Assembly: GCA_963767415.1 (NCBI GenBank)
Contig: CAVYEU010000095.1
Span: 2,959 to 66,958 of the forward strand
Direction of reading: 5' to 3'
Source of the DNA: an uncultured Eubacteriales bacterium
GTDB lineage: Bacteria > Bacillota > Clostridia > Acetivibrionales > CAVYEU01
DNA length: 64,000 nt
Below are positions 5,608 through 57,799 of the stretch, piece by piece. The translations under genes were made by a program, and so were the position numbers. The notes under the pieces are model-generated. The model was not told where the DNA came from and ran no database searches. It was given only the letters and a program-made list of their open reading frames with translations. Each line of letters begins with the position of its first letter. Positions within the stretch are counted from its first letter, which is position 1.

Positions 5608-6849
5608 ATGGAGGAAGTAATGTCAAAGAAGGTAGTTGTAATAGGCGCTGGACCTGCAGGTATTATGGCAGCATGTGTAGCATCGCAAAAAGGTAACAAA
5701 GTATATTTACTTGAAAAAAATAATAAAATCGGGGAAAAAATTTTAATTTCAGGTAAAGGCAGATGCAACATAACTAATGATACTGATGTTGAAGGTCTGA
5801 TAGAAAACACTCCTGGAAATGGTAATTTTCTTTATTCTGCTTTTCATACTTTTTCAAACACTGACCTAATAAATTTCTTTAATGCCCATGGCTTAGAAAC
5901 AAAGGTTGAAAGAGGAGGACGGGTTTTCCCGGTATCTGATGATGCAAAAGATGTTGTAGACGTATTATTACGATATTTAGAGGAAAGCAATGCTAAGGTT
6001 CTACTAAATTCGAATGCTGAAAAAATTTTGGTAGAAAATAATACTATATCTAGTGTAATACTCAAAAGTGGAAAAGAGATTGTTTGTGATAATGTGGTGC
6101 TAGCAACTGGAGGTGCATCTTATCCATTAACAGGCTCAACCGGTGATGGATATAAAATTGCCAAGTCACTGGGACATACAATTAATGAATTAAAACCATC
6201 CTTAATACCCCTTATCACAAAAGAAAAATGGATTTCAGAGCTTCAAGGGGTATCTCTTAAAAATATTGAGATTACTTTAGTTCATAAAAACTCAAAGGTA
6301 TTGTATACAGATTTTGGTGAAATGATATTTACTCATTTTGGGGTATCCGGTCCTGTTATTCTAAGTGCTAGTAGACATATTTTAGACTATGGATATACCG
6401 GGATAAAACTTTTTATTGATTTAAAACCAGCGCTTAATGTGCAAAAGCTTGACGAACGATTTCAAAGAGATTTTACTAAATATTCAAGAAAACAGTTTAA
6501 AAACTCATTAGATGATTTATTGCCAAAAAAAATGATTCCTATAATGATTAGATTATCAGGCATCTCCCCTGAAAAACCGGTAAACCAAATAACTAAAGAT
6601 GAAAGAAAAATAATCCTTAATCTATTTAAGCAATTTGAACTAAATATCATTGGTTCAAGGCCAATTGATGAAGCTATTGTTACTTCTGGAGGCATATCCG
6701 TCAGCGAAATAAGCCCATCTACAATGGAATCAAAAATAATAAAGAATCTATATTTCGCAGGAGAAATAATTGATGTAGATGCCTACACTGGTGGATACAA
6801 TCTAACCATTGCCTTCTCGACCGGCTATTTGGCAGGGAAAAGTATATAA
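5608..6849 (+). CDS. NAD(P)/FAD-dependent oxidoreductase, HI0933/BaiN (aminoacetone oxidase-like) family
   Basis: VVVIGAGPAGIMAA dinucleotide-binding fold; 413 aa; HI0933-like layout. Confidence 0.75.
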   Translation: MEEVMSKKVVVIGAGPAGIMAACVASQKGNKVYLLEKNNKIGEKILISGKGRCNITNDTDVEGLIENTPGNGNFLYSAFHTFSNTDLINFFNAHGLETKVERGGRVFPVSDDAKDVVDVLLRYLEESNAKVLLNSNAEKILVENNTISSVILKSGKEIVCDNVVLATGGASYPLTGSTGDGYKIAKSLGHTINELKPSLIPLITKEKWISELQGVSLKNIEITLVHKNSKVLYTDFGEMIFTHFGVSGPVILSASRHILDYGYTGIKLFIDLKPALNVQKLDERFQRDFTKYSRKQFKNSLDDLLPKKMIPIMIRLSGISPEKPVNQITKDERKIILNLFKQFELNIIGSRPIDEAIVTSGGISVSEISPSTMESKIIKNLYFAGEIIDVDAYTGGYNLTIAFSTGYLAGKSI

Positions 6850-16740: not shown

Positions 16741-17409
16741 TTGAAAAAAGACATTATGTTTTTATTGATATTTATTTTTGGAATAAATATTTTAAGCGGA
16801 TGTAGTTTAATAGAAAGCGTCAGTCTCAAAAAGAATGCTGAAACCCAAGCTTTCCCTGTAAGCAGTACGGCTTTGAGTGAGAGTGAAGCTCAAAAGCGAA
16901 CTGACAAAGTTCCTATACATCTTTATTTCGCAAATGGAGATAATTCAAAGTTAAAGCTTGAAATCCGGTATATTCCTGTTGAGGAGGCGAAAAAAAGTGT
17001 AAACAATCTTGCTTCCATTGTATTAAAGGAATTAATAAAAGGACCCAAGCCAGGTGGCGGATTAAGATCAACAATACCTGTAGATACCAAACTGATTTCT
17101 TCAATCTCAATAGATGGGGGAATATCTTCTGTTAATCTTTCAAACGATTTTATAAAAAACCATGCAGGAGGTAAAGCCGAAGAAGAATTAACCTTATATT
17201 CAATTGTAAATTCATTAACAGAACTAAAAGAAATTCAAAAAGTAAAATTTTTTATCGAGGGCAAACAACAAAGAGACTTTAAAGGGAATTTTAAATTCAA
17301 TGCATTGTTCCCTAGAAATAGCTCTCTAATAAGTAAAGAAATCGAATCACTAAGTCCAAACGAAAGATCTACTGTAGGCACAAGCAAAACTGAAGATTAT
17401 CTTGAATAA
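16741..17409 (+). CDS. GerMN-domain lipoprotein (sporulation/germination GerM-like)
   Basis: Lipoprotein signal with lipobox (MKKDIMFLLIFIFGINILSGC from a TTG start, or MFLL.. from the ATG at 16756), then a GerMN-like domain (VPIHLYFANGD...KFFIEGKQQRDFKG). Confidence 0.65.
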   Translation: MKKDIMFLLIFIFGINILSGCSLIESVSLKKNAETQAFPVSSTALSESEAQKRTDKVPIHLYFANGDNSKLKLEIRYIPVEEAKKSVNNLASIVLKELIKGPKPGGGLRSTIPVDTKLISSISIDGGISSVNLSNDFIKNHAGGKAEEELTLYSIVNSLTELKEIQKVKFFIEGKQQRDFKGNFKFNALFPRNSSLISKEIESLSPNERSTVGTSKTEDYLE

Positions 17410-17496
17410 TAATATACTAAGGGGACGAAAATATTGACAATATCTTCGTCCCCTTAGTATATTATTATCGTCTTATTATTTCAACGGCTTCTTAAT

Positions 17497-25957: not shown

Positions 25958-26185
25958 CAGTTAAAGTTAATAATGATATTTGCAATCTACCCTAAATATT
26001 GTACACTAATATCTTAAATAAACCATAAAAATTTTTATATAATTTGTGCAATTTTTACATATGATATTACTATTTAGAGATCGTAGGGGGATCTTTGAGG
26101 GAAGTCTTCAAGCTGTCGTAAGATCTATAACCCTGCTTGCCACCTTAGGTAACCGCAGGGTCTGAATAATGACTATAAAAATTAT

Positions 26186-26920
26186 CTATTTTTTAAAATA
26201 CTCCTTAATTCCTTCAAAAATTGCAGTAGCTACTTTGTCCTGGTACTCTCTTGTTACAAGCAATTTCTCTTCATTTGGGTTAGATAAAAACCCGCATTCA
26301 ACGATTGAGATTATTGCCTTATTATTATTCAAAATGATTATCGGTTCCTTTTTTTCTAAAGCAGTTCGTTTATTATTTGGATCAACTGATCTTTTTATCG
26401 AATCTTGTAAACATAAAGCGAGCCTTTGACTTTGTGGTGAATTTGAGGGATAAAACGTTTGAGCTCCACTATATTTACCTTCAGGAAATTTATTTAAATG
26501 TATACTTACAACAATATCAGTTGCTTCATCGTCCATCATTTTTTTCCTTCTCAATAGATCTTGTTTCCTTTTTTGAACTATTCCCTTTGTTTCTGACTGG
26601 TATTCTAATCTATCTTCTTCTCTAGTCATTAAAACTTTATAATTTTCAGTAGTTAATAAATCCCTTAGTCTTTTTGCAATATACAAGTTTACATCTTTCT
26701 CTTTAAGTCCACTAAAGTCACTCACTGCTCCCGGATCTTCCCCTCCATGTCCAGGATCAATTAACACTATTTTGGATTTAATTTCGGTATTTGTAGTTAC
26801 TGCTGATGAAACATCATGAATAAACTCTATTCCATACAGAACTAAAGATAATAAGATGATAAGTAACGTAAATATAACTCTATTCTTCTTAAAAATTAAG
26901 ATCATACTCTCATACCTCAT
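26186..26920 (-). CDS. cwlD: N-acetylmuramoyl-L-alanine amidase, CwlD-like (germination-specific)
   Basis: Signal/TM, then Amidase_3 motifs (IVLIDPGHGGEDPGA...ADIVVSIHLN...IIVECGFLSNPNE). Confidence 0.8.
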   Translation of the reverse strand: MRYESMILIFKKNRVIFTLLIILLSLVLYGIEFIHDVSSAVTTNTEIKSKIVLIDPGHGGEDPGAVSDFSGLKEKDVNLYIAKRLRDLLTTENYKVLMTREEDRLEYQSETKGIVQKRKQDLLRRKKMMDDEATDIVVSIHLNKFPEGKYSGAQTFYPSNSPQSQRLALCLQDSIKRSVDPNNKRTALEKKEPIIILNNNKAIISIVECGFLSNPNEEKLLVTREYQDKVATAIFEGIKEYFKK

Positions 26921-26993
26921 TTTAAATGTTTATTAATATAAATATTACTAGAGGTATGTTTTTATTACAAAAATCTTTTCTCTTTTTGAAATA

Positions 26994-27133
26994 GCAAAGC
27001 AATAGAGAGGCAAGACAAGACAAGGGAGGTGGAGTGACAGGGGACGGTTCTTTGACACACATGCATGTGTGTCAAAGAACCGTCCCCTGTCACTCCACCT
27101 CCCTTGTCTTGTCTTGCCTCTCTATTGCTTTGC
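26994..27133. repeat. perfect 140-bp palindrome (70-bp arms), GC-rich
   Basis: GCAAAGCAATAGAGAGGCAAGACAAGACAAGGGAGGTGGAGTGACAGGGGACGGTTCTTTGACACACATGCAT and its exact reverse complement, centred at 27063/27064; verified base by base. It overlaps the last codons of capD. Confidence 0.9.
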
Positions 27134-28957
27134 GCAAGTATAACTTGGAACAATAAGACTTATATACTCCATTGCCTGGTCGGAATTTGTCATAATTTTT
27201 TCTTTAAGTTCTTCTATTTCATGTCTTAAAAGCCCTAAATCTGTAAGTATTGGTTTTGCAACAAATATCTTATTATTCTTTGTTTTCCCTAAATCCTCTC
27301 CTTCAATCACTAATTCTTCATATAGCTTCTCTCCTGGTCTAAGTCCAGTAAACTGTATTTCAATATCATCCGTCTTAAATCCCGAGAGCCTAATCAAATT
27401 TTTCGCCAAATCATATATTTTAACTGGCTCGCCCATATCAAGTACAAAGATTTCTCCTCCTTTTGCCATTGCACCAGCTTGTACAACAAGTTGGACAGCC
27501 TCACATATAGTCATAAAAAATCTAGTTATATCTGGATGAGTTACTGTTACAGGACCACCATACTCAATCTGTTTTTTAAATAAGGGAATTACGCTTCCGC
27601 TACTTCCTAGAACATTGCCGAATCGGACCGCAACAAATTCGGTCTTGCTATGCCTATTTAGTGCTTGTATTATCATTTCTGCTACTCTTTTTGTAGCTCC
27701 CATGATATTGGTTGGATTAACAGCTTTGTCAGTTGATACTAAGACAAACTTTTTTACCCCATATTTATCAGAACACTCTGCTAAATTTTGTGTACCAAAG
27801 ACATTATTTCTTATAGCCTCTGTAGGGTTTAATTCCATTAATGGCACATGCTTATGCGCTGCAGCATGAAATACTACATCAGGATTCAATCTTTCAAATA
27901 TATCGTCAATCCTATGCTTTTCTCTAATATTAGCTATTTTCGCATCCAATTTCAAGTTTGGATACTTGCACAACAACTCGTTTTGTATTTCAAATACATT
28001 GTTCTCATTATTATCCAGAATGATTAGTTGCTTTGGGTTAAATGATGCTATTTGTCTACAAAGCTCAGAACCTATAGAGCCACCACCACCAGTCACCATT
28101 ACGACTTGATCTCTCAAATATGATGATATCTCATCAATATCTAAATCCACAGGCTCACGTAACAGGAGATCTTCAATGTCGACATCTCTTATTTTTTGTA
28201 TAACAACCGATTCGTCTATCAATTCTGACATAGACGGAAGAATCTTGACCTTGCAATACGTTTTTGAACATTCACTATAAATCTCATTTATATCCCGGTT
28301 GCTAGCTTTTGGCAATGCGATTATAACTTCACTTATCTTTAGATCTTCAATAACATGCAGTATATCATTACTGGTGCCAACAATTGGCACTCCATTTATT
28401 AGTTTTCCAACCTTGTATTTGTCATCATCAATGATCGCGATAGGTTTACTCATAAGCTCGTGATGCGCTTTTAATTCTTTAATTATTGCAGCTCCTGCAT
28501 CACTTCCTCCAATTATAAGTATCCTTTTATAATTACCAAAAGACCCTATCTGCTTAAGTCTAATTCTTCTAAACACTCTATAAGCAAATCTTACTCCTCC
28601 CACTAAAAAGATATCTACTAAAAAGGCTATTATAAATATACTTCTTGGTATATAAATTCTAGAAATGAAAATATAACTAATAACAATAGCATTACTAACA
28701 AAAGACACCAAAACTATTGTTACCAGTTCAAATATCCCTGCATATTGCCATAGACTGTTGTATAGTTTGAACGCTAAGAAACAAATTATTTTTATAACAG
28801 TTGCAATCAATAGTATTTCAAAAAATGAATTATGGAATTCCTCAGGGATACTCCAAAATGAGAAATCAAACCTTATTAAATATGATATACAAATTGAAAT
28901 ATTAATAAGCAGAATATCTAATAATATCAATAACTTTGTTCTTATCTTATGTCTCAA
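27122..28957 (-). CDS. membrane-anchored polysaccharide biosynthesis protein CapD/PglF-like (NDP-sugar 4,6-dehydratase)
   Basis: 611 aa; N-terminal TM helices; two Rossmann regions (ILIIGGSDAG.., VMVTGGGGSIGSEL); CapD-like length and layout. Confidence 0.85.
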   Translation of the reverse strand: MRHKIRTKLLILLDILLINISICISYLIRFDFSFWSIPEEFHNSFFEILLIATVIKIICFLAFKLYNSLWQYAGIFELVTIVLVSFVSNAIVISYIFISRIYIPRSIFIIAFLVDIFLVGGVRFAYRVFRRIRLKQIGSFGNYKRILIIGGSDAGAAIIKELKAHHELMSKPIAIIDDDKYKVGKLINGVPIVGTSNDILHVIEDLKISEVIIALPKASNRDINEIYSECSKTYCKVKILPSMSELIDESVVIQKIRDVDIEDLLLREPVDLDIDEISSYLRDQVVMVTGGGGSIGSELCRQIASFNPKQLIILDNNENNVFEIQNELLCKYPNLKLDAKIANIREKHRIDDIFERLNPDVVFHAAAHKHVPLMELNPTEAIRNNVFGTQNLAECSDKYGVKKFVLVSTDKAVNPTNIMGATKRVAEMIIQALNRHSKTEFVAVRFGNVLGSSGSVIPLFKKQIEYGGPVTVTHPDITRFFMTICEAVQLVVQAGAMAKGGEIFVLDMGEPVKIYDLAKNLIRLSGFKTDDIEIQFTGLRPGEKLYEELVIEGEDLGKTKNNKIFVAKPILTDLGLLRHEIEELKEKIMTNSDQAMEYISLIVPSYTCAKQ

Positions 28958-52861: not shown

Positions 52862-53633
52862 TTATATTCTGTCGATTACACTTTTAGAAATACCAATGAT
52901 CCTTGATAATTGACGTATTGATATGCCTTCAATTAATTTTAGTTTACAGATATATTCATTTCGCATTTGAATGTTCATATTATGTAATTCATTTACGTTC
53001 TCAAGACCAATTTGTACTATGATTTCTAGAACATCATTGTCATCTAGCCTTTTGGGGTCATAATAATCTAAACATTGATCTTTATTACTTTCATTATTAA
53101 ATTTTATAAATAATTCAATAGCCTTTTTATGGTCAGATGAATACAATAGCAAAGCAACTTTGGTATTTACCATATCAAAGTTTTCTATATATTCATTGTA
53201 ACTACTCCATTTATAATCTTGAATATTGCGTGTAATATTTGCTTTGACTGGGTTTTGATGAATATATCTTAAAACCCGTCAAGAAATATGAATCATCTAA
53301 TACTACTTCACTTTTAAATCTTTCTTGAAATAAGTGCCCACATCTTCCATACTTTTTATTGTACCAAAAAACATAGCTACTACTAATTCTTTTTATTATA
53401 TTAGATATGGACTCGTTGCTTTCTTTTAAAAGTAAATGGATATGGTTGCTCATCAAACAATAACTATAAATTTCATATTTACAAATTTCCTTATACCTTA
53501 CAACAGTTTCAAGAAACCTCTGTTTGTCTTCATCGTCTTCAAAAATTATTTGTTTGTTTATTCCACGCATAATAACATGAAATATACCACTATCACTTTC
53601 TATACGACTATGTCTAGACATACAAGCCTCCAT
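52862..53633 (-). pseudogene. Y1 HUH transposase (IS200/IS605 TnpA / REP-associated tyrosine transposase-like) with C-terminal HTH, disrupted by a +1 frameshift in a G-run
   Basis: N-terminal part carries the HuH motif (CLMSNHIHLLL) and YGRCGHLFQERFKSEVV. Removing one G from GGG (plus-strand CCC at about 53280) restores ...DDSYFLTVLRYIHQNPVKANITRNIQDYKWSSYNEY..., which continues in frame into ORF 52862..53173 with an HTH (ISIRQLSRIIGISKSVIDRI). A subterminal hairpin TACGGAGCATAGCTCCGTA sits at 52812-52832. Confidence 0.65.
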
Positions 53634-53717
53634 TTTGTTTATTTTAATTCAATTATTGATAAAAATAATGTTTCTGTAATAAAAGTACCTTTTTTAAATT
53701 TTATCATAACTTCAAAA

Positions 53718-53748
53718 GAGGGACAAGGTACCTGTCCCCTTGTCCCTC
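53718..53748. repeat. REP-like GC-rich palindromic element, copy 1
   Basis: GAGGGACAAGGTACCTGTCCCCTTGTCCCTC; nested palindromes GGGACAAGG/CCTTGTCCC and GGACA..TGTCC. Confidence 0.8.
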
Positions 53749-53768
53749 CAATATAATTAGGAGCATTA

Positions 53769-54743
53769 TCAATCCTTTTCTCTTAATTCCAGTATTTCGG
53801 CTTCAGATATATTTAATATATTTATAATTTCATCTATAGATCTACCTAAGTTTATTAACTTTTTTGCGATTTCATATACCGTTTGTTTTTTCCCTTCTTC
53901 TATACCAAACCTCTTTCCTTCTTCTATACCAAACTTCTTTCCTTCTTCTATACCAAGCTTCTTTCCTTCTTCTATACCAGACTTCTTTCCTTCTTCTATA
54001 CCATCTTTTTTCCCAACTACATAAGTAGACTCATGCATACTTGCCTGATAATGCATATTTTCTATATAACGTTTATAATCAAGTAAATCTTCTTTAGGTA
54101 GCTTCATTTTATTTAATTTCTCTCGTGCCTCGCTTAGCCCTTTTGCACTAAATTCTTCCTTTATCTCTTCATTTTTCAAAAAATAGATCCATTCATCTAA
54201 CGAATCTTTTGCTATATCGTTAAACCTGTTTACCTTTATAAGATAATATTCTGGATATATTTGATAAACAAAATCTTTTGAGTATAACTCTTGCTGTCTT
54301 GCATTTAATTCCAATTCATCATCAAAGTGCAATCCTTTGAATTTTGTTGTACCATGATATACATAATCAAGTCCATGCCCTAGGTCAAAAAATACTACAC
54401 TTATTGAGTATATTTTTTTTACACTTGAATAGGGATCGCTTTCCCTCATGTACTCTGTTATTGACTTGGAAACTCCAAATAGAATCCTTGATAAAAAATC
54501 AAATTCGTTATCTACTTGAATTTCTACAATTATTAACTCCTTGTCTTCGTTTTCTACCATTATATCAACTCTATTGTATTTATCGTCCTTATCTTCTTTA
54601 TTACTTTCACTCTCTATTATATTCACAATTTTTAGATTTTGACGTAATACAACACTTAAGAACCCTTCCAGAACCCCAAAATTCGCTTTACTTCTTAATA
54701 GTTTTTTTATTGCCCAGTCAAACCGTACCAGCTCTCTCTCCAT
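53769..54743 (-). CDS. Rpn/YhgA-like PD-(D/E)XK nuclease-family putative transposase (TIGR01784-like), paralog 1
   Basis: N-terminal PD-(D/E)XK core (RVDIMVEN..ELIIVEIQ) and a C-terminal G(I)EEGKK decapeptide repeat encoded by 30-bp tandem DNA repeats (53880-54010). Confidence 0.65.
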   Translation of the reverse strand: MERELVRFDWAIKKLLRSKANFGVLEGFLSVVLRQNLKIVNIIESESNKEDKDDKYNRVDIMVENEDKELIIVEIQVDNEFDFLSRILFGVSKSITEYMRESDPYSSVKKIYSISVVFFDLGHGLDYVYHGTTKFKGLHFDDELELNARQQELYSKDFVYQIYPEYYLIKVNRFNDIAKDSLDEWIYFLKNEEIKEEFSAKGLSEAREKLNKMKLPKEDLLDYKRYIENMHYQASMHESTYVVGKKDGIEEGKKSGIEEGKKLGIEEGKKFGIEEGKRFGIEEGKKQTVYEIAKKLINLGRSIDEIINILNISEAEILELREKD

Positions 54744-55003
54744 GACCTCTCTCCTACATTTATATTTTATTTAGTATTATATTTAAGTAAGTATAATTGC
54801 TATCTGATAGTATTATACTATAATTATTTTAAGATACGTTATAGTTATTTTTTTTTAATTGTTTTTTCTCAAACTCGTCCAGCCTAATTCAGTCTCTAAT
54901 ATGGTTTATGTACCTACAATTGCTTATCAATAGTAAAAACGCACCCCTTTGTTCTCCTTATTTTTTTTCAATTGCTGGGACAAAAGTGGGAGCAGGGGAA
55001 AAA

Positions 55004-55034
55004 GAGGGACAAGGTACCTGTCCCCTTGTCCCTC
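55004..55034. repeat. REP-like palindromic element, copy 2
   Basis: Identical GAGGGACAAGGTACCTGTCCCCTTGTCCCTC. Confidence 0.8.
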
Positions 55035-55256
55035 TCCACTGATGAAATAGGTAAAAGCCTAAGCAATTTTATACTATTGAAAAACATAGTGATGACATTG
55101 TTTTTAAAGTTGCTGATAAAAGAAATAAAACACTCAAAAGTCTCGATAAATTCAAACTACTAAAACACTTTGAAGCATCTAGAAAGTGGAATAAAAAGAA
55201 TAGTTAAATCAACCGCAACTGATAAAAATAGCCCATACTGTGGCATTCATTTCAAG

Positions 55257-55281
55257 AGAGGGACAGGTACCTTGTCCCTTC
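55257..55281. repeat. REP-like palindromic element, degenerate copy 3
   Basis: GAGAGGGACAGGTACCTTGTCCCTT; one base missing relative to the full element. Confidence 0.6.
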
Positions 55282-56437: not shown

Positions 56438-56467
56438 TTAAGGGAAAGGGACAAGGAACCTGTCCCC
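56438..56467. repeat. REP-like palindromic element, copy 4 (one mismatch)
   Basis: GGGACAAGGAACCTGTCCCCTTGTCCCTCC. Confidence 0.75.
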
Positions 56468-56599
56468 TTGTCCCTCCAATATAATTAGGAGCATTATCAA
56501 TCCTTTTCTCTTAATTCCAGTATTTCGGCTTCAGATATATTTAATATATTTATAATTTCATCTATAGATCTACCTAAGTTTATTAACTTTTTTGCGATT

Positions 56600-57454
56600 T
56601 CATATACCGTTTGTTTTTTCTTCCCCTCCTTCTTCTATACCAAACTTCTTTCCTTCTTCTATACCAAGCTTCTTTCCTTCTTCTATACCAGACTTCTTTC
56701 CTTCTTCTATACCATCTTTTTTCCCAACTACATAAGTAGACTCATGCATACTTGCCTGATAATGCATATTTTCTATATAACGTTTATAATCAAGTAAATC
56801 TTCTTTAGGTAGCTTCATTTTATTTAATTTCTCTCGTGCCTCGCTTAGCCCTTTTGCACTAAATTCTTCCTTTATCTCTTCATTTTTCAAAAAATAGATC
56901 CATTCATCTAACGAATCTTTTGCTATATCGTTAAACCTGTTTACCTTTATAAGATAATATTCTGGATATATTTGATAAACAAAATCTTTTGAGTATAACT
57001 CTTGCTGTCTTGCATTTAATTCCAATTCATCATCAAAGTGCAATCCTTTGAATTTTGTTGTACCATGATATACATAATCAAGTCCATGCCCTAGGTCAAA
57101 AAATACTACACTTATTGAGTATATTTTTTTTACACTTGAATAGGGATCGCTTTCCCTCATGTACTCTGTTATTGACTTGGAAACTCCAAATAGAATCCTT
57201 GATAAAAAATCAAATTCGTTATCTACTTGAATTTCTACAATTATTAACTCCTTGTCTTCGTTTTCTACCATTATATCAACTCTATTGTATTTATCGTCCT
57301 TATCTTCTTTATTACTTTCACTCTCTATTATATTCACAATTTTTAGATTTTGACGTAATACAACACTTAAGAATCCTTCCAGGACCCCAAAATTCGCTTT
57401 ACTTCTTAATAGTTTTTTTATTGCCCAGTCAAACCGTACCAGCTCTCTCTCCAT
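56600..57454 (-). CDS. Rpn/YhgA-like PD-(D/E)XK nuclease-family putative transposase, paralog 2 (near-identical to 53769..54743 but with fewer 30-bp repeat units and an altered C-terminal end)
   Basis: Protein identical to paralog 1 over about 270 aa; the GIEEGKK repeat is shorter and the C-terminus reads GIEEGGEEKTNGI. Confidence 0.6.
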   Translation of the reverse strand: MERELVRFDWAIKKLLRSKANFGVLEGFLSVVLRQNLKIVNIIESESNKEDKDDKYNRVDIMVENEDKELIIVEIQVDNEFDFLSRILFGVSKSITEYMRESDPYSSVKKIYSISVVFFDLGHGLDYVYHGTTKFKGLHFDDELELNARQQELYSKDFVYQIYPEYYLIKVNRFNDIAKDSLDEWIYFLKNEEIKEEFSAKGLSEAREKLNKMKLPKEDLLDYKRYIENMHYQASMHESTYVVGKKDGIEEGKKSGIEEGKKLGIEEGKKFGIEEGGEEKTNGI

Positions 57455-57713
57455 GACCTCTCTCCTACATTTATATTTTATTTAGTATTATATTTAAGTA
57501 AGTATAATTGCTATTTGATAGTATTATACTATAATTATTTTAAGATACGTTATAGTTATTTTTTTTTAATTGTTTTTTCTCAAACTCGTCCAGCCTAATT
57601 CAGTCTCTAATATGGTTTATGTACCTACAATTGCTTATCAATAGTAAAAACGCACCCCTTTGTTCTCCTTATTTTTTTTCAATTGCTGGGACAAAAGTGG
57701 GAGCAGGGGAAAA

Positions 57714-57744
57714 GAGGGACAAGGTACCTGTCCCCTTGTCCCTC
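57714..57744. repeat. REP-like palindromic element, copy 5
   Basis: GAGGGACAAGGTACCTGTCCCCTTGTCCCTC. Confidence 0.8.
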
Positions 57745-57799
57745 TCTAAATAGTAACAAGAAAAAGAAACAAAGAAAAAACAGCTGACAAAGCCTCTGT

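Follow-up and report, generated by a model that had tools for sequence, protein, structure and literature searches.

TIRtrons, or TIRYTs, are RAYT-like Y1 transposase genes located between inverted repeats; the repeats do not form hairpins, contain a GGGG[AT][CG]A[CG] (GGGGWSAS) motif, and occur as dimers, in clusters and dispersed (Di Nocera et al. 2013, PMC3733652). The TIRYT class corresponds to TnpA-Y1 subclass 2.1, whose proteins are long and have a C-terminal helix-turn-helix-like tail (Quentin et al. 2018, PMC6006769), and RAYT Group 1 has members in numerous classes, Clostridia among them (Bertels et al. 2017, PMC5581495). REPINs are REP doublets that form hairpins and are mobilised by RAYTs; the unit that moves is considered to be the doublet and not a single REP (Bertels and Rainey 2011, PMC3116915). 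REP dimers have also been found inside larger palindromes, as with GTAG-15 of Anabaena variabilis and CGTC-1 of Halothiobacillus neapolitanus (PMC3733652). As for long perfect palindromes in general, both template strands of 460-bp examples engineered into the E. coli chromosome fold into hairpins, and their cleavage by SbcCD is lethal (Azeroglu et al. 2014, PMC4245961), and a quasi-palindrome can be perfected by template switching of the nascent strand (PMC7202029).

The locus described here is a palindrome in the window, that is, the whole stretch of DNA that was analysed (64 kb). Its parts and the two neighbouring genes are as follows, in window positions.

26994..27133, no strand: perfect 140-bp palindrome with 70-nt arms (26994-27063 and 27064-27133), 100% complementary and without spacer.
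26994..27033, plus strand: left outer arm extension of 40 nt, which repeats the 3' end of capD and its flank in inverted orientation.
27034..27058, plus strand: inner repeat unit GTGACAGGGGACGGTTCTTTGACAC, a terminal repeat of the TIRYT/RAYT type in left-end orientation, whose 22-nt core occurs exactly elsewhere.
27059..27068, no strand: self-complementary 10-nt centre ACATGCATGT, separating the two inner units.
27069..27093, minus strand: inverted copy of the inner unit, in right-end orientation.
27094..27133, minus strand: right outer arm extension of 40 nt, whose outer 12 nt are the capD codons Ala-Lys-Gln-stop.
27122..28957, minus strand: gene for a CapD/EpsC-like NDP-sugar dehydratase of 611 aa (Polysacc_synt_2 and related families), with its 3' end inside the right arm.
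26186..26905, minus strand: gene for a CwlD-like N-acetylmuramoyl-L-alanine amidase (Amidase_3), 88 nt downstream of the palindrome.

A preliminary description of this DNA had reported a perfect palindrome with 70-bp arms between capD and cwlD, and its coordinates and complementarity were confirmed. The GC content, described as about 50% against an AT-rich background, is 51.4% for the palindrome and 32.5% for the window; the alternation of purines and pyrimidines at the centre is seen in ACACACATGCATGTGTGT; and the palindrome does begin inside the last codons of the CapD-like gene, since the right arm covers the last three codons and the stop (GCA AAG CAA TAG, the outermost 12 nt). The 70-mer occurs at two places only within the window when up to three mismatches are allowed, and none of 100 shuffles matched. 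The next-longest perfect hairpin of the window has arms of 26 nt, and the 70-nt arms are thus 2.7 times as long. At the core, the two inner units and the self-complementary centre together form a perfect hairpin of 60 bp. The predicted fold of the 140-mer as DNA has an energy of -91.4 kcal/mol (z -26.4), and that of a 211-nt minus-strand RNA containing the palindrome -151.1 kcal/mol (z -22.5), with a 68-bp stem and the central 4 nt unpaired. The sequences on the two sides of the palindrome (...GAAATA and GCAAGT...) have no direct repeat in common, such as the target-site duplication of a MITE. This absence is as expected for a Y1 transposase, because these enzymes make no target-site duplication.

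The best NCBIfam match of the CwlD-like protein is spore_cwlD, at 216.8 bits just below the cut-off of 221.55. In the 88-nt gap between the palindrome and cwlD, no sigma-70-like site was found by a promoter prediction that does not include sporulation-sigma promoters. The closest CapD homologues are about 70% identical to the window's protein and differ in downstream gene order, with VanZ and a two-component system following capD in the relatives, whereas cwlD follows it in the window. No second genome of the window's species was found, and neither was a true empty site among the CapD homologues. The homologues mostly end in ...YKKAQ or ...YKKAE, whereas the window's CapD ends in ...YTCAKQ, and the outermost 9 nt of the palindrome, GCAAAGCAA, resemble GCAGAGTAA at the homologous position in a relative (L058). 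From this position match and the C-termini of the homologues, the capD end looks native, and the outer end of the left arm looks like a copy of it, although only a few bases lie behind both statements. A change of GC skew from negative to positive is located at about 30-32 kb of the window, where the genes switch from minus-strand to plus-strand orientation.

The preliminary description had suggested a search for the arm in other genomes, and the outcome differed between the parts of the arm: the inner unit was found in numerous places and the outer 40 nt matched nowhere. Specifically, in a scan of 185,579 species-representative genomes, the 22-mer GACAGGGGACGGTTCTTTGACA had exact matches at 49 loci in 21 genomes, and a genome often has many copies. 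These genomes include four of Atribacterota, many of Bacillota (Desulfosporosinus, Syntrophomonas and Clostridia MAGs among them, and Desulfofundulus thermobenzoicus DSM 14055 with about 20 copies), and a single MAG under each of the labels Spirochaetota, Stahlbacteria and Deltaproteobacteria. An in-register alignment of the loci defines the conserved unit as the 25-mer GTGACAGGGGACGGTTCTTTGACAC; its flanks vary from copy to copy. The exact 25-nt repeat is thus common to these distant anaerobes and absent from the phage, plasmid and viral collections, which implies that some vector has spread the element horizontally among anaerobes. The 25-mer alone has a folding energy of 0 kcal/mol, no better than shuffles, without self-complementarity and without a GTAG tag. 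Because it does not fold on its own, it is a terminal inverted repeat and not a REP in the strict sense. Its segment GGGGACGG agrees with the GGGGWSAS motif at 7 of 8 positions. Within the 64 kb of the window there is the one doublet and no further 25-mer unit. Neither the unit nor its exact conservation across phyla was found in the literature, including by a search with the sequence string. In some of the other loci (L015, L021, L033, L041, L020 and L025), the full 25-mer is often preceded by its own truncated 5' copies, e.g., gatgacaggggatgatgacaggggatgatGACAGGGGACGG, and units in those genomes also occur in direct arrays with periods of 20-50 nt, a "stutter" pattern.

In several of these genomes the unit is linked to a Y1 (HUH) transposase gene. 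A tblastn search located the unit 52 nt upstream of a Y1_Tnp gene in a locus of Atribacterota (L013) and 86 nt upstream in one of Desulfosporosinus (L023). In both, an inverted near-copy (23/25) starts 6 nt after the stop codon, and the encoded proteins are 263-266 aa long. The layout is similar at four more loci (L011, L017, L015 and L031), and the distance from the unit to the gene is 50-110 nt across L013, L023, L011 and L017. All of the unit-linked Y1 proteins, which are about 260 aa long, have the HUH and Y---NP motifs. They probably correspond to TnpA-Y1 subclass 2.1 and RAYT Group 1. Their C-terminus gives only sub-threshold matches to HTH_23, HTH_28 and HTH_5 (residues about 235-263), and a phmmer search against PDB sequences found no relative of the transposase. 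A further case is the relative L003, in which a Y1 gene lies between perfect 26-nt inverted repeats AAGACAAGGGGACGGTTCTTTTGTCT (5859-5884 and 6712-6737) and is inserted at the last codons of capD; the element has replaced these codons, and the C-terminus ...KKDKGTVLLS is encoded by the repeat. Its protein also has the HUH and Y---NP motifs and scores 82.6 bits against the NCBIfam model NF047646 (REP-associated tyrosine transposase), above the cut-off of 80. The insertion point at the capD 3' end is the same in L003 and in the window, although the CapD proteins are only about 70% identical.

The unit also occurs in pairs. The fetched sequences contain 124 cores. Where neighbouring cores no more than 150 nt apart are inverted relative to each other, their order is "plus then minus" in 12 cases, including the pair in the window, and "minus then plus" in none; adjacent direct pairs number 32. 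Since all 12 inverted pairs have the same order, they always correspond to the left end plus the right end of the gene-bearing element. The following four doublets are near-perfect palindromes through self-complementary centres of unrelated sequence.

L009: arm 34 nt, loop 1 nt.
L054: arm 38 nt, loop 2 nt.
L056: arm 29 nt, loop 3 nt.
L055: arm 19 nt, loop 0 nt.

In the eleven doublets other than the window's, the palindrome ends within about 4 nt of the outer boundary of the unit, whereas in the window it runs 40 nt farther on each side. Membership in the repeat family therefore does not account for the outer 2 x 40 nt. A blastn-short search with the outer 40 nt found no other match in the window or in the fetched loci, a JGI metagenome scan with the junction between outer arm and unit found nothing, and a search of 5.8 billion predicted proteins gave no candidates for the peptides encoded by the palindrome in two reading frames.

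The window contains one Y1 gene of its own, together with a group of short hairpin repeats.

52866..53633, minus strand: RAYT/TIRYT-like Y1 transposase gene with a +1 frameshift (Pfam Y1_Tnp, E 1.2e-13), a possible former or trans-acting partner of the doublet.
53717..53750, no strand: related hairpin repeat AGAGGGACAAGGTACCTGTCCCCTTGTCCCTC (families D4 and D5), about 85-95 nt upstream of the Y1 gene.
55003-55036, 55251-55279, 56444-56478 and 57713-57746: further copies of this hairpin repeat.

This is the sole Y1 gene within the 64 kb, and the repeat that flanks it is a diverged variant, not the 25-mer. The frameshift lies in a G-run near 53290, directly before the catalytic-tyrosine motif YIHQNP, and could reflect either a real pseudogene or a homopolymer sequencing error. 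After correction of the frame, the protein shows 38% identity with its L003 homologue over 257 aa and 47-49% identity with the homologues in L022 and L031; it scores 71.1 bits against the NCBIfam model of REP-associated tyrosine transposases, for which the cut-off is 80. The hairpin repeat has a folding energy of -11.2 kcal/mol and contains GGGGACAG, which agrees with GGGGWSAS at 8 of 8 positions. The palindrome had been tied to the repeats at 53-58 kb by shared short cores, and this relation holds in a sharper form: in alignments with the inner unit of the arm that contain two 1-nt gaps, the repeats agree with it at 23-24 of 27 positions, and two of the five copies have scores that none of 500 shuffles reached. 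The outer arm was also considered as a stretched copy of the stems of these repeats, and this was rejected because 28-29 and 223 of 500 shuffles scored as well. The five copies, each 30-40 nt, lie within 4 kb by the Y1 gene and are interleaved with PDDEXK_2 and Transposase_31-like genes. Two paralogous genes annotated as PD-(D/E)XK "transposases" in this region (53769-54743 and 56600-57454, minus strand) have in common a 300-nt stretch that is 100% identical, and near the 3' end of each are four to five tandem 24-nt repeats (TTCTTTCCTTCTTCTATACCAAAC-like) in frame. Elsewhere in the window, a hairpin with 31-nt arms between convergent genes (17406-17468) contains GGGGACG (ACTAAGGGGACGAAAATATTG...), which may be due to chance or may indicate a distant relative of the same repeat family.

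Taken together, these data make it likely that the palindrome was built around a non-autonomous doublet of the terminal repeats of a RAYT/TIRYT-type Y1 (HUH) element, effectively a "TIRtron" without its gene that is comparable with a REPIN. The preliminary description had related the palindrome to mobile DNA, and its core is indeed a repeat tied to Y1 transposase genes. The 25-mer has three properties of TIRtron/TIRYT repeats: it flanks RAYT-like Y1 genes in other genomes, forms no stem-loop, and occurs as dimers and in clusters. It differs from the described repeats in the one motif position noted above, and the palindrome in the window continues 40 nt past the repeat on both sides. With REPINs the locus has in common two inverted transposase-associated units a short distance apart, which form one long hairpin in single-stranded DNA or RNA. 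However, a REP unit is a small hairpin in its own right and carries a GTAG tag, whereas the unit in the window has neither fold nor tag; REPIN stems are imperfect and have a spacer, whereas here 70 perfect pairs are formed without a spacer; and REPINs number tens to hundreds per genome, whereas one copy is seen in the 64 kb of the window. In functional terms we regard the doublet as analogous to a REPIN. The GTAG-15 and CGTC-1 cases resemble the locus in that a repeat dimer stands at the centre of a longer palindrome foreign to the repeat; there, however, the outer palindrome recurs with many dimers, whereas the outer arms in the window are unique and include a stop codon. By analogy with IS200/IS605 and RAYT systems, a transposase acting in trans would recognise such doublets at the replication fork, in the form of single-stranded hairpins, and would move them or would once have done so. 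Since the only Y1 copy in the window is frameshifted, the doublet described here is probably immobile now and inert. We know of no demonstration that this repeat family transposes.

A basic question is whether the palindrome is real. Exact matches to the CwlD-like and the CapD-like protein were each found in a single sequencing run, ERR11523654, on two short Logan contigs. In this independent k=31 assembly, the contig with the cwlD flank stops exactly 30 nt into the left arm, and the contig on the capD side stops exactly 30 nt into the right arm; 30 nt equals k-1, and in a de Bruijn graph a true inverted repeat causes contigs to fork k-1 into each arm. Because the two unique flanks reach the same 30-mer in opposite orientations, the inversion was not invented by the assembler of the window. 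The presence of the palindrome in the organism, and not just in the assembly, is supported only indirectly, in that the k=31 contigs cover the outer 30 nt of each arm. It might be argued that the arms of the inverted repeat are real and that the zero-loop centre, or even the whole inversion, came from a fold-back chimera or from reflection of the graph walk at a palindromic k-mer, in which case a longer insert or loop may be missing. In fact, the window apparently comes from a metagenome-type assembly, the organism was found in a single run, zero-spacer perfect palindromes are a known failure mode, and the 46-aa and 62-aa ORFs inside the palindrome have no record in any other assembly. However, both unique flanks are linked to the outer 30 nt of the arm in the run's own k=31 assembly, which then stops, as it must at a true inverted repeat of 30 nt or more; a reflection would carry the inverted copy on into capD instead of ending after 70 nt in a different unique flank; and near-zero-loop palindromes of the same repeat exist in unrelated assemblies, including L054, an isolate-quality contig of 1.13 Mb. 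We consider an artefact improbable on these grounds.

Other explanations accept the palindrome and give it a different origin. One of them is that a complete TIRtron once stood after capD and that a deletion between its two ends removed the gene and joined the ends. The complete element at the same gene boundary in L003 and the left-end plus right-end orientation of the doublet agree with this idea, which is nevertheless unlikely: with CapD proteins only about 70% identical, another variant of the repeat in L003 and a different downstream gene order, independent insertion is the more likely event, and the spacer left by a deletion would be asymmetric, given that left-inner and right-inner sequences differ in L013 and L023, whereas the centre in the window is perfectly self-complementary. 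A host regulatory hairpin that evolved in place as a terminator, attenuator or mRNA stabiliser, with no contribution from mobile DNA, would account for the position between two co-oriented genes and for the start at a stop codon, and the window has other long perfect hairpins between genes, with arms up to 26 nt. The arms are, however, far longer than any of these, and the inner 25 nt are identical to a cross-phylum repeat tied to a transposase gene. Moreover, the stem is followed on the transcribed strand by UAUUUCAAAAAG, which is not a T-tract, and a terminator prediction for 26100-27400 scored no terminator-like site. The earlier remark that the palindrome is far beyond the needs of a terminator holds, and the lack of a U-tract can be added to it. 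No Rfam family was found at threshold: the gathering scan gave a tRNA elsewhere only, and a relaxed scan gave sub-threshold look-alikes of microRNA precursors, as with any perfect hairpin. A host origin is thus very improbable. The least credible candidate, to which we give almost no weight, is a protelomerase target, a phage or plasmid attachment site or a replication origin. Some telomere-resolvase sites are perfect palindromes with an alternating purine/pyrimidine centre. The preliminary description had proposed a hairpin-ended element, a recombination site or a replication-related structure. This proposal did not stand. No protelomerase or replication gene is adjacent to the palindrome; blastn of 26950-27180 against INPHARED (50,697 phage records) and PLSDB (72,556 plasmid records) gave only chance matches with E 0.2 or worse; and three IMG/VR scans found nothing. 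In addition, the flanking genes are ordinary chromosomal genes for cell-envelope and sporulation functions, and the core belongs to a dispersed repeat family.

If the palindrome was built around a transposase-associated doublet, the long arms call for an additional step. Either nested insertion at a hairpin apex or template switching could plausibly have produced them, and we prefer these two routes jointly. In the former, a symmetric doublet would have inserted into the apex of an existing perfect hairpin just after capD; the window does hold perfect hairpins with arms up to 26 nt, and in this case an empty-site capD would be expected to end in ...GCAAAGCAATAG, with a short hairpin next to it. 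In the latter, the nascent strand would copy itself, so that a quasi-palindrome is extended or made more perfect. Either route would leave the native capD stop codon within the stem. Alternatively, the element in this genome might have long ends of 70 nt, which would supply the last codons of capD, as in L003.

A more speculative idea, which we think has a rather small chance of being correct, is that the palindromes of this repeat with zero or near-zero loops in unrelated genomes are a product of the Y1/HUH enzyme itself. The enzyme might nick beside the repeat, with fold-back and hairpin-templated synthesis then following, as in terminal resolution by the parvovirus Rep protein, or template switching might be provoked by the covalent protein-DNA intermediate. 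At this locus such a process would have continued for 40 nt into the host sequence, with the capD end copied on the way. If so, the repeat family would be a natural generator of long perfect palindromes that are tolerated by a Firmicute chromosome.

Like the engineered palindromes of E. coli, the one described here is perfect, has no spacer and should be able to extrude replication hairpins on both template strands, although it is natural and has 140 bp instead of 460 bp. By this analogy it may be costly to the cell, which would point to a recent origin or to continual self-correction of the arms. On the RNA level, the capD transcript would contain a double-stranded stem of 68-70 bp that begins 9 nt before the stop codon. 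Since there is no T-tract and no terminator-like site was scored, we infer that this stem would act as a barrier to 3' exonucleases and would be a likely substrate of RNase III, and not a canonical terminator.

The central 60 bp of the palindrome are a REPIN-like doublet of TIRYT-type repeats and as such of a known kind, while the 40-nt extension and the full symmetry are unusual. No new category is opened by this locus, because transposase-associated repeat doublets have been described since 2011-2013. What is documented here is a specific 25-nt repeat that distant phyla of anaerobes share to the base and that is tied to a RAYT/TIRYT subclass on which little work has been done and which, to our knowledge, has no demonstrated mobility or biochemistry. 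If the palindrome is real, it offers a natural 140-bp zero-spacer case of how long perfect palindromes form and are tolerated. For the organism itself, a 70-bp RNA duplex over the stop codon, between the genes for a capsule-type sugar dehydratase and a spore-cortex amidase, could affect the expression of both genes.
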